A DNA stretch of 64,000 bases from Escherichia phage vB_EcoM_G17. Position numbers and translations under genes: made by a program. The stretch is taken from sequence record MK327931.1. One strand, given 5' to 3'. The notes beneath the pieces are model-generated. The model searched no databases, was not told the DNA's origin, and saw nothing but the letters and a program-made list of their open reading frames with translations. Of the stretch, positions 3,806-51,046 are shown one piece after another; the stretch's first letter is position 1, and each line of letters begins with the position of its first letter.

Positions 3806-4027
3806 TTAATTACGTTTAAAATGATATGTGCCTTTATCATCCTGTACGCCCCACACTGATTTACCATCAACACCAGTGAAACCGGATTGTAATTCAATAT
3901 GGAAACCATTATTATCAACTACAAAAACTTTTTTATTTTCATCCCGATAACATTGATATTCTGAATCAACATTAAAGGCCGCATCATTCAGAAGATTGGA
4001 AGCGTAAATGCAAGTCATTGTAGTCAT
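3806..4027 (-). CDS. hypothetical protein (73 aa)
   Basis: Track ORF 3806..4102 trimmed to ATG at 4027 (MTTMTC) with AAGGA SD; the longer form would start inside the hairpin/promoter. Confidence 0.55.
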   Translation of the reverse strand: MTTMTCIYASNLLNDAAFNVDSEYQCYRDENKKVFVVDNNGFHIELQSGFTGVDGKSVWGVQDDKGTYHFKRN

Positions 4028-4248
4028 GATTTTATTCCTTATTACCAGGGAGAACCATTTCCCCCTCTCTATGTAAAACATTATACTTGATTCTAAGTAC
4101 AATGCAAGTACTTTTTATCAAATAGTTTTCAGTACTGAATACTTATATAATAGATACACTTCCGCACCCTATGGGTCAGTGAGTTATCTCTCAATGAATA
4201 TATAATAGCAAAGGGACTGACCGGAGTCAATCCCTTTTTTAATCTTTT

Positions 4249-4833
4249 TTATCGTGTTACCTTACTTGCTTCTACATCACGCTTTTTATAGTACTGATTC
4301 CAGATATTGCGGGTTAAACCGTAATCAAGTACTTTAATAAGGCCATTACGATCCTGGCCGATATTCTGTTTTCTGATATCTCTTATCGTTAGTGTTGATA
4401 ATGTATCATCAACGTGTTGTAGTGCATCAGCAAAGCGGTGCTGGCGTTCAATGGCATTACGTTTAATATTGTACTTTAATTCATTGCACGCGTTTACGTG
4501 CTTTACACTGCCTTTACTTGCAGTACTCAACCGATCCATAACGATAAACATATTATCAGGATCGCATAAATGCATATGCACCTTTGCAAAGTACTGTTTC
4601 AATTGAGGGCGGTCATAATCTAAAAAATTCCATACCTTACATTCAGTTTCATTTTGTTCTACACCCGCATCACAATTCGCGACCTTGATCACTAACCGAT
4701 CATTTAAAGCGAATACAATACGGGAAGAACCCGCACCGATGATCTCCAGACCAGCTAACCGACAAGCTGAAAGGATCTCTTTGTTGGTTTCCATTTCTGA
4801 CAGGGTACGGATGAATTTAGTATAATTACGCAT
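4249..4833 (-). CDS. minimal protein-kinase-like protein (about 194 aa)
   Basis: Motifs in translation: glycine loop IGAGSSRIVF, VIKVA lysine, catalytic-loop-like RDIRKQNIG, DFG-like IKVLDYG; start trimmed to ATG 4833 with AAGGAGA SD. Confidence 0.55.
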   Translation of the reverse strand: MRNYTKFIRTLSEMETNKEILSACRLAGLEIIGAGSSRIVFALNDRLVIKVANCDAGVEQNETECKVWNFLDYDRPQLKQYFAKVHMHLCDPDNMFIVMDRLSTASKGSVKHVNACNELKYNIKRNAIERQHRFADALQHVDDTLSTLTIRDIRKQNIGQDRNGLIKVLDYGLTRNIWNQYYKKRDVEASKVTR

Positions 4834-4864: not shown

Positions 4865-5107
4865 TTACAGTACTTTACTATCAATGGCAACTACTTTTTT
4901 AACATTAACGGCGTGGATCACCTCCTTAGTGTTTTTAGTACTGAATACTTTCGCCGCCCCATTCACGACCGTGATACGATAGCGACCATTAACATCAACC
5001 ATATTAATAAAGTCCGGCGTGCTGAATGGTGTTGTTTTACATTTGAGTACTGTTAACAATTCCACCAGCGATGTAGTTTCTTTGATACGTTTTTCTAAAG
5101 TAATCAT
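4865..5107 (-). CDS. hypothetical protein (80 aa)
   Basis: Track ORF; GGGGA SD; upstream region nearly identical to that of 5166..5384. Confidence 0.55.
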   Translation of the reverse strand: MITLEKRIKETTSLVELLTVLKCKTTPFSTPDFINMVDVNGRYRITVVNGAAKVFSTKNTKEVIHAVNVKKVVAIDSKVL

Positions 5108-5165
5108 TTTGTTTTTCCCCGTGTTGGTATGTACATATAGTACTAAAACATTTGAGTACTGTCAA

Positions 5166-5384
5166 TTAGATAATATTATATTTCTTAAAATAAAATGCGT
5201 CCTGTGTTGGTTGATACTCAATGCCATTGCCGTTATTGACTTCAACTAATAAACCTTTGTCAATAAGTTTTTTAATAGTACGATACCCTTGTTGAAAATT
5301 GGTAAAATGTGAATCATTACGAAAGGTATAACCGTGCTTAACTGCTTCATCAATAGTTTTCTTTTCGATTTTAGATAATTTCAT
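5166..5384 (-). CDS. hypothetical protein (72 aa)
   Basis: Track ORF 5166..5441 trimmed to ATG 5384 (MKLSKIEKK) with GGGAGA SD. Confidence 0.5.
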   Translation of the reverse strand: MKLSKIEKKTIDEAVKHGYTFRNDSHFTNFQQGYRTIKKLIDKGLLVEVNNGNGIEYQPTQDAFYFKKYNII

Positions 5385-5437
5385 TTTGTTTCTCCCGTGT
5401 TGGTATATGTACATAGTACTAAAACATTTGAGTACTG

Positions 5438-5692
5438 TCAACGTGATATTAGTTTTATTTTCTTATTATATTGTTGGTGTTCATATAGGTTTATCTTTCC
5501 TGTGTTCTCAATTACTATTCTGTTGTTAGTGTCCACATCGATTACACGCAGTTTCCCGTTGCTTAACTTCCTTGGTAATAGGTTACCATTAATAAACTCA
5601 TTAGCAAGCTGTACGGCCTTTGTGATGATTCTCTTCGGTGCTTTATAGTGTACCCGTAAGATGTTATCTTTATATAGTTGAACCTTAATCAT
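5438..5692 (-). CDS. hypothetical protein (84 aa)
   Basis: Track ORF; hairpin GGCGGGA-N5-TCCCGCC plus T-run just upstream. Confidence 0.5.
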   Translation of the reverse strand: MIKVQLYKDNILRVHYKAPKRIITKAVQLANEFINGNLLPRKLSNGKLRVIDVDTNNRIVIENTGKINLYEHQQYNKKIKLISR

Positions 5693-33572: not shown

Positions 33573-34310
33573 ATGTTACCTTTTGGAAGAATGATTAAGT
33601 ACGGGAATGAAATTGAATATAAGCCACATGGTGAACAATTAATCACGACAATAGGAACAACACAATTTACAGTTCCTGCTGGCGTTACCGAAATATCAGT
33701 ATGTGTTATTTCGCCGGGTGGTCAACGTGGTGCTGGCGGCGGCTTATCGTGGCGTAATAATATTCCGGTTACTAGTGGTGAGTACTTAAGTGTTTCTCTT
33801 ACGCATACCAACACTACTACACCAGTTGAAAACGGTTTATATCGTGGAACTGAAAAACTATGTGTTAGCTTCACTGGTGCATATACGGTTGGTGGACTAG
33901 GTGGAAAAGCTGCTAACGCTATTAATGATGGTGGTGGTAATGGTGGCAATACTGGTGTAAGTGGTGGTGCAGTCATTGGTGGTGGTGCTGGTGGCTACAC
34001 AGGTAAAGGTGGTAACGGAGATGCAATCACTGGTGAAAATGGTGCTGGCGGCGGCGGGGGCGGTGGTACATTCTATAATACCTCGTTCATTGGTACGGGT
34101 GGTGGTACTGGTATCATTGTTCAAGGTGCTAATGGTATTGGTGGTAGCTACGGTGGTTCATATAATGGTGGTGCTGGTAGTGGTGGTGCTGGTAAGATGT
34201 ATGGTGGTGGTGGTAGTATATGGGATAATTCTTCTTATACGGCTGCTGGTGGTGGTGCTGTGCGAATAATATGGGGAAATGGGAGATATTATCCTAACAA
34301 TTCAGTATAA
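33573..34310 (+). CDS. MLPF-family glycine-rich protein R8 (245 aa)
   Basis: Same promoter/RBS cassette and N-terminus MLPFGRMIKYGN, but body is Gly-rich (GGAGGYTGKGGNGDAITGENGAGGGGGGG...). Confidence 0.65.
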   Translation: MLPFGRMIKYGNEIEYKPHGEQLITTIGTTQFTVPAGVTEISVCVISPGGQRGAGGGLSWRNNIPVTSGEYLSVSLTHTNTTTPVENGLYRGTEKLCVSFTGAYTVGGLGGKAANAINDGGGNGGNTGVSGGAVIGGGAGGYTGKGGNGDAITGENGAGGGGGGGTFYNTSFIGTGGGTGIIVQGANGIGGSYGGSYNGGAGSGGAGKMYGGGGSIWDNSSYTAAGGGAVRIIWGNGRYYPNNSV

Positions 34311-34317
34311 AATATAG

Positions 34318-34347
34318 GCCAGTACAGAGTACTGGCTTTTCTTTTTG
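34318..34347 (+). terminator. Rho-independent terminator after R8
   Basis: GCCAGTAC-aga-GTACTGGC then ttttctttttg. Confidence 0.6.
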
Positions 34348-34380
34348 ATTAAATATAGTATAATGAATAAAGGAGGAAAT

Positions 34381-46551: not shown

Positions 46552-46618
46552 GTATTCATCCTCTCGTCTTGATGAAATAATTATAGCAAAAAGGGCTGAC
46601 CGAAGTCAACCCTTTTCT

Positions 46619-46888
46619 TTATTCAATGATCCCCAACTTCACAATCTCATACCCGTCCAGATAGCCGTAGGAACACTCAGGTGTTTCATAAGATGAACCA
46701 TCATGGATGCCCTGGCATTGACTTTTGGAATTCTCAAGCAATCGTTGCAGTACTGATACGTCATCAAGAACGTAATACAAGTTAGCATATAGGTCAGTTA
46801 CAATACAGTACTCCAACATATCAAATGTATCAATCGAAATTTCAACCTTAGCAAATCGTTTCTTTTCTTTATTATACAGTGCGTACAT
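46619..46888 (-). CDS. hypothetical protein (89 aa)
   Basis: Track ORF 46619..46906 trimmed to MYALYNK, placing the ATG just after the stop of the upstream kinase-like gene. Confidence 0.45.
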   Translation of the reverse strand: MYALYNKEKKRFAKVEISIDTFDMLEYCIVTDLYANLYYVLDDVSVLQRLLENSKSQCQGIHDGSSYETPECSYGYLDGYEIVKLGIIE

Positions 46889-46889
46889 A

Positions 46890-47261
46890 TTAATCTCCAT
46901 AATCAAGTTTAACTAACTTACCACCCAGATACCCAAAGTTTTCTGGCTTCGCATCTGAATAGAAGAAGTCAGTACTTAACTCTGAATTCAATGCTAAAGC
47001 ACACAACTCCACCCAAAATAAACCCCTATGTTGAACTGGCTTACAACGTTTCTGTACAGTTACTAGTCCAGTACATGATGACCACAACGTAGGACAGATA
47101 CTACTATCACTACGATTGGAGTACTGCATCCACGAACGTTCATTGAGGTTAGCTATCATCCCTGTTAAGAATAGCTTCCAACTTTTAAAGGTTGGAATCT
47201 TGATAGCATATTCCCCAATGAGGATAACAGTTCGTGTTGCACCTTTCAAATCTATATTCAT
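46890..47261 (-). CDS. minimal protein-kinase-like protein, paralog of 4249..4833
   Basis: VILIGEYAIKIP (lysine), SDAKPENFG (catalytic-loop-like), KLVKLDYGD (DFG-like); LST...D.K.(Q/E)N.G....G(L/K)(I/L)VK(V/L)LDYG shared with 4249..4833. Confidence 0.5.
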   Translation of the reverse strand: MNIDLKGATRTVILIGEYAIKIPTFKSWKLFLTGMIANLNERSWMQYSNRSDSSICPTLWSSCTGLVTVQKRCKPVQHRGLFWVELCALALNSELSTDFFYSDAKPENFGYLGGKLVKLDYGD

Positions 47262-50404: not shown

Positions 50405-51046
50405 TCAATAAAAAACTGGATCTTCTTCAGTAATTGGTATTTCTCTACGCACATCACACGAAAGAGGATCAGTAATGAATACATTCCCATCTTTATCCAT
50501 CATCACATTACTTGAATGAATGTCTGGTACAAAACGCCCGTGAAACTCTTTCATGATGTTAGCAGCGACCGTTGCAATAGCAATCTCTTCAGAATTTCCA
50601 CGCATATCATTCACTGAAGTTGCGTACTGACCAGCATGTGCATACGAATACAAATCTCCAATTTTAGTACTAACAAAGTCATCATAATTATTTTTTTGTT
50701 TAATTATAGGATAGTACTTGTCCATCTCATACCATCCAAAGTTTCCTTGTTCGTTTGCACTGTAGATCACAGGAAGAAACTTGGTTCCTGCGTTTTCAAT
50801 GCAGTACTTTGCATAAGCACGAAAACCATCCCAGCGTGAAGTGGTTACTTTAAATGCACTTCCAGGATAGTTTTTATGTTCAACTACTACAGAGTACATC
50901 CCCATTCCAAGCAAAGTAAGTCCAGCAGCTTTAACTTGTGGAAAGATTACGCGTTCAGCATAAGGAATATCAAACTCCATCGCACAACGAGTTTTTGATG
51001 GACGCAAAATGTCAATTAAAGTTTTGAATATTTCTTGCTTAGTCAT
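50405..51046 (-). CDS. protein-kinase-like fold protein (213 aa)
   Basis: LLGMGMYSVVV (Gly-rich loop), AFKV lysine, PDIHSSNVMMDKDGNVFITDP (D-x-H-x-x-N then D); start trimmed to MTKQEIF because upstream ATGs lie in the predicted -10 box. Confidence 0.5.
   Translation of the reverse strand: MTKQEIFKTLIDILRPSKTRCAMEFDIPYAERVIFPQVKAAGLTLLGMGMYSVVVEHKNYPGSAFKVTTSRWDGFRAYAKYCIENAGTKFLPVIYSANEQGNFGWYEMDKYYPIIKQKNNYDDFVSTKIGDLYSYAHAGQYATSVNDMRGNSEEIAIATVAANIMKEFHGRFVPDIHSSNVMMDKDGNVFITDPLSCDVRREIPITEEDPVFY

Follow-up and report, generated by a model that had tools for sequence, protein, structure and literature searches.

Can a protein kinase fold that ends at or shortly after its DFG position serve a phage as an enzyme? 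The question is raised by a 64,000-nucleotide stretch of the genome of Escherichia phage vB_EcoM_G17 (MK327931.1), here called the window, which shares 99% identity with Escherichia phage Sharanji and 92 to 98% with other Asteriusvirus jumbo coliphages (∼350 kb). Three minus-strand open reading frames (ORFs) are at issue: P1 (4249-4833), a 194-aa minimal Hanks-type kinase-like protein (K50 at 4684-4686, D152 at 4378-4380, and D170 at 4324-4326); P2 (46890-47261), a 123-aa kinase core (K21 at 47199-47201, D103 at 46953-46955, and D120 at 46902-46904); and P3 (50405-51046), a 213-aa T7 gp0.7-type kinase domain without the shut-off domain (K66 at 50849-50851, D175 at 50522-50524, and D193 at 50468-50470). 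According to the original prediction, the canonical order of kinase motifs is present in all three, which end 0 to 30 residues after the DFG equivalent. We confirmed both points: conservation in each family peaks at the motif columns, the motif order is maintained in homologs, and the proteins extend 24 (P1), 3 (P2), and 20 (P3) residues past the DFG-type Asp. A scan of all ORFs of the window with a P2-type profile recovered P1 at 2e-7 and found no fourth kinase-like ORF. The start codons assigned earlier are supported by Shine-Dalgarno sequences (AAGGAG 8 nt ahead of ATG 4833 for P1; GAGGA ahead of ATG 51046 for P3), by start residues that match those of distant homologs for all three proteins, and by the position of the alternative P3 start, ATG 51079, which falls within a promoter/terminator element.

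By its sequence, P3 is a homolog of the T7 gp0.7 kinase domain, and is already known as such. It matches the same two PHROGs as T7 gp0.7, phrog_15752 (1.9e-91) and phrog_2828 (6e-16), and hhalign aligns it to T7 residues 61-230 with 98.5% probability (E = 3e-15; ∼30% identity), pairing GMGMYS with GNGHFS, FKV with IKV, DIHSSNVM with DMHSGNIM, and FITDP with YITDP. The residues conserved in its family (G47/G49, K66, D175-x-H-x-x-N180, and D193-P) include the Gly loop, Lys, D-x-H-x-x-N loop (DIHSSN), and D-P in place of DFG (ITDPL) that it shares with T7 gp0.7, although P3 has Leu rather than Val after D-P. A tblastn search with P3 returned 769 phage records, mostly gp0.7 genes of Autographiviridae; all P3 homologs have a precomputed Pfam match, PF27024.1. 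P3 is annotated as a "putative protein kinase" in G17 and as a gp0.7-like kinase in 121Q, PBECO4, and phAPEC6, and the Sharanji paper names its ortholog a T7 kinase homolog. Bartolec et al. (PMC13645617; Nature 2026) place G17 among the jumbophage T7-kinase homologs without a shut-off domain and report that a D-P(V) motif replaces DFG in this family; the T7 enzyme, an early gene product, phosphorylates Ser, Thr, and Tyr hyperpromiscuously and is described as a broad anti-defense weapon (2026). P3 differs from it in lacking the C-terminal shut-off/DNA-binding domain (T7 residues 243-359). Its short tail after D-P is nevertheless a feature shared with T7 gp0.7: in vitro work on T7 used a kinase domain spanning residues 1-242 (DPV at 213-215), and this domain is highly active by itself, so the P3 tail represents the family norm and not a truncation.

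P1 and P2 do not belong to the gp0.7 family. The three proteins had been proposed to form one family, of which P1 and P2 were clear paralogs; the relationship between P1 and P2 stands, whereas P3 is separate (hhalign probability to the P1 family, 3.9%). P1 and P2 are both members of PHROG 4301 (phrog_4301 matches of 1e-41 and 8e-44, respectively), which is annotated as "unknown function," with scattered records labeling its members Ser/Thr kinases. They are paralogs, albeit distant ones whose homology emerges at the profile level (hhalign of the two family profiles, E = 5.5e-5): pairwise BLASTP gives E = 0.03 and ∼18% identity, which argues for old paralogs and against a recent duplication. 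A joint alignment shows invariant G, R, V, K, G, N, E, D, G, D, and G. Conserved motifs are G33/G35/R38/V40, K50, E64, D152, N157, and D170-Y-G in the P1 family and G7/R10/V12, K21, E41, D103-A-K-P-E-N108, and D120-Y-G in the P2 family. Both families therefore possess the Gly-rich loop, in which the third Gly is replaced by an invariant Arg, the β3 Lys, and the helix C Glu, together with the catalytic-loop Asp and Asn and the DFG Asp (D152/N157/D170 in P1; D103/N108/D120 in P2).

Predicted structures support a kinase-like fold for P1 and P2. The AlphaFold2 model of P1 (pLDDT 84.4) begins with two helices at the N terminus, followed by an N-lobe of five strands plus helix C, then helices D and E, the catalytic loop, a β hairpin, DYG, and one terminal helix, thus covering kinase subdomains I-VII. 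The P2 model (pLDDT 92) is a P1-like core minus these extensions and ends at DYGD; both models were built on shallow alignments (22 to 23 sequences). Foldseek searches of the PDB with the P1 model matched only kinases (best E = 1.5e-4; MEK1, PknB, MKK4, APH(2''), and Lpg2603), and the top 50 matches to the P2 model (E = 2e-3; TM 0.5 to 0.65) were all kinase-fold proteins, among them WbdD, Lpg2603, MPS1/TTK, RIOK2, and PRPK. Structural neighbors in BFVD include many short phage proteins (117 to 209 aa) and short giant-virus kinases. Sequence searches gave fainter signals: P1 matches only positions 26-152 of the 263 in the Pfam Pkinase HMM, with 17.8 bits (below the gathering threshold of 31.7), and a PDB search with its family profile finds MKK4 and MKK7 at ∼2e-4 over residues 29-182; neither P2 nor P3 matched Pkinase in the Pfam scan, and P2 had no significant sequence match in Pfam or the PDB. 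Profiles and, for P1 and P2, predicted structures together support a kinase-like fold. According to the Pkinase HMM coverage for P1 and the models of both proteins, Hanks subdomains VIII-XI (activation segment/APE and helices F-I) are absent from P1 and P2, which bears out the proposal that most of the C-lobe is missing after the DFG position. "Truncated," as the proteins were first called, does not apply relative to their own families: lengths are conserved in all homologs, so the short form is native to their families.

P1 is an already recognized, uncharacterized kinase. P1-type proteins are restricted to RaK2-like jumbo phages, and the Sharanji paper calls the P1 ortholog (WNN14351.1) another protein kinase, of unknown function. 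Since the kinase status of P1 and P3 was already in the literature, the description of the three as an unusual set was overstated. Five metagenomic proteins (P0068, P0105, P0139, P0159, and P0189; 468 to 969 aa) contain 2 to 4 tandem P1-like units and are without a Pfam match.

P2, annotated as hypothetical, is the most interesting of the three and belongs to a large, unstudied family comprising the shortest kinase-like proteins we found. An exhaustive profile search yielded 2,086 cluster representatives at E ≤ 0.001 and at least 733 clusters at E ≤ 1e-10. Length is ≤160 aa in 131 of the 143 best representatives (median, 124 aa), whose median tail past the DFG-type Asp is 3 residues. G7, R10, K21, E41, and D120 are near-invariant (the last three as assessed in 135 cluster representatives); the catalytic loop reads D-x-K-x-x-N in 62 of these 135 and E-x-K-x-x-S in 37, and P2 itself carries the Ser/Thr-kinase signature D-x-K-P-x-N. 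Such covariation between D-K-N and E-K-S, together with the near-invariance of K21, E41, and D120, indicates selection on the active site. P2 homologs are found in 117 phage records spanning many genera (T-even phages such as BASEL Bas45 among them) and are nearly always annotated as "hypothetical protein," occasionally as "serine/threonine kinase." In a lambdoid Salmonella prophage (L010; L011, positions 4001-4372), a P2 homolog stands alone between Rz of the lysis cassette and terminase Nu1, a typical cargo site. In one protein, P0193, a P2-like domain is fused to Phage_min_cap2 (PF06152); this fusion may hint at virion delivery of some mini-kinases, or may be a gene-calling fusion.

The surroundings of the three genes suggest how they might be expressed. 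A hairpin with an embedded σ70-like promoter (TTGACT-18-TATGAT) lies directly upstream of P3 (51075-51113, minus strand); elements of the same type lie directly downstream of P1 (4202-4237, minus) and at the end of the block running from P3 through P2 to an abutting ORF (46580-46609, minus), so that these units bracket P1 and the P3-to-P2 block. The hairpin core, TTGACT[CT]CGGTCAG, occurs 11 times on the minus strand of the window (at 1465, 4217, 7486, 10774, 43900, 45314, 46596, 51091, 52176, 53785, and 57210), with 0 copies expected by chance. The stem and T-run resemble a terminator, with TTGACT as the −35 box of a σ70-like promoter; the elements look like composite terminator/promoter units. 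Perfect 12/12 σ70 promoters (TTGACA-16/17-TATAAT) occur on the coding (minus) strand, both in the vicinity of P1 and between P3 and P2 (6652-6625, 6222-6194, 3802-3775, 3308-3281, and 48378-48351). In phages vB_Ec-M-J and fENko-Kae01, the annotated direct terminal repeat (∼20 kb) contains the P1 ortholog, which is thus present in two copies per genome and near a genome end. Because of these consensus promoters and the terminal repeat location, we infer that the kinase-like genes are probably transcribed early by host RNA polymerase. Two sets of tandem paralogs lie nearby on the minus strand: three small membrane proteins (122, 115, and 112 aa) between P3 and P2 (49024-50059), and duplicated short ORFs at 5037-5441, both beginning MTVLKCFST and each with a promoter-like site, TTGACA-17-TACTAT.

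We somewhat favor the explanation that P1, P2, and P3 are three autonomous, early-expressed ATP-dependent phosphotransferases from two families that act in host takeover or anti-defense. Each would retain the N-lobe that binds ATP, helix E, the catalytic loop, and the Asp that binds Mg, and would dispense with helices F-I as well as the activation segment and P+1 loop; with no activation loop or substrate-docking platform, such enzymes are predicted to be constitutively active and poorly selective. Host (and phage) proteins would be phosphorylated soon after DNA entry and, by analogy with what has been shown for T7 gp0.7, this could aid takeover or blunt defense systems. Support comes from the homology of P3 to the hyperactive T7 kinase, whose isolated domain has an equally short tail; from the occurrence of a P2-type gene on its own in unrelated phages and at the prophage cargo site; and from the existence of active kinases without subdomains VIII-XI, namely, the effectors OspG of Shigella and NleH1/2 of E. 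coli (OspG/NleH). The likeness of P1 and P2 to OspG/NleH is architectural only, since hhalign of OspG and phage-borne NleH with P1 and P2 gave probabilities of ≤2.7% and there was no HMM score, even if the OspG tail, IDFRNIYAEYY, resembles that of P1, DYGLTRNIWNQYY (ospG, 33824-34414; window, 4249-4326). Moreover, OspG acts in eukaryotic cells, requires E2∼ubiquitin, and has ∼39 residues past the DFG-type Asp compared with 3 in P2. Bud32/PRPK and RIO kinases are likewise small kinase folds without an activation loop and are among the structural matches of P2 (TM 0.63 to 0.65), but these proteins are twice the length, still have helix F and additional C-lobe helices, and form part of conserved cellular complexes.

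Several points weigh against autonomous phosphotransferases. P3 lacks the DNA-binding domain that targets the T7 kinase, and the weak or absent Pfam and PDB sequence matches of P1 and P2 also count against this explanation. P2 reduces the kinase fold further than any characterized kinase we found, and we know of none whose chain stops 3 residues past DFG. The kinase catalytic core is normally anchored by helix F, and P2 may therefore be inactive alone. P1, and especially P2, might instead be nucleotide-binding pseudokinases or ATPase switches that bind and sequester or remodel a host protein and do not phosphorylate substrates. P2 does lack all substrate-binding elements, a third of its family has E/S for D/N in the catalytic loop, and its structural matches include RIOK2 and PRPK; ATPase activity is the main one of Bud32/PRPK and RIO. 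However, one or more catalytic residues are usually missing from a pseudokinase, and the canonical ones are all kept in the proteins of the window and in most of the family. Their retention argues against a pseudokinase, and we regard this alternative as unlikely.

Given its extreme truncation and the OspG precedent, P2 might also be one half of a split kinase, with the rest supplied in trans by a host protein or through self-association, in the way that host E2∼ubiquitin activates OspG. The partner suggested originally, a translationally coupled 89-aa ORF (phrog_8563; 46619-46888, minus) whose GGAG sits in the last P2 codons, can be set aside: it is restricted to Asteriusvirus, Salmonella relatives with P2 have lost part of it, and a weak paralog lies elsewhere in the window; P2 homologs had no common neighbor in the four unrelated contexts we compared. 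Without a conserved phage-encoded neighbor, any partner of P2 would be a host protein or P2 itself. A host partner would have to be very conserved, given the spread of the P2 family among phages of many host genera, and the AlphaFold2 monomer of P2 is very confident; we consider a split kinase improbable. Phosphorylation of a small molecule (sugar, lipid, nucleotide, or signaling molecule) by P1, P2, and P3 seems very unlikely: the structural matches include APH(2'') and WbdD, and the D-x-H-x-x-N loop of P3 is typical of APH and choline kinases, but this loop is shared by T7 gp0.7, whose protein kinase activity is proven, P2 carries the Ser/Thr signature D-x-K-P-x-N, and none of the three proteins has the large C-terminal helical lobe that binds such substrates. 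Chance motif matches or decayed gene fragments, which the weak pairwise similarity might bring to mind, are refuted by the profile and fold evidence, by conserved length over hundreds of clusters, and by intact orthologs in dozens of phages, leaving a negligible likelihood.

G17 thus carries three kinase-fold genes, two of them from PHROG 4301, a family without an assigned function. A more speculative and less likely reading is that P2-type proteins (∼120 aa, subdomains I-VII only, 3 residues past DYG) constitute a widespread, undescribed class of smallest functional kinases, active alone or completed by docking to a host protein, and that a wide variety of phages and prophages use them as a one-gene module for host manipulation or anti-defense. 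If the 120-aa form is active, it would redefine how small a catalytic unit of the kinase fold can be, and a large family of hundreds of clusters, represented in the tractable BASEL phage Bas45, would join the enzymes of phage host takeover; if it is inactive, the family would represent a new kind of viral nucleotide-binding decoy.
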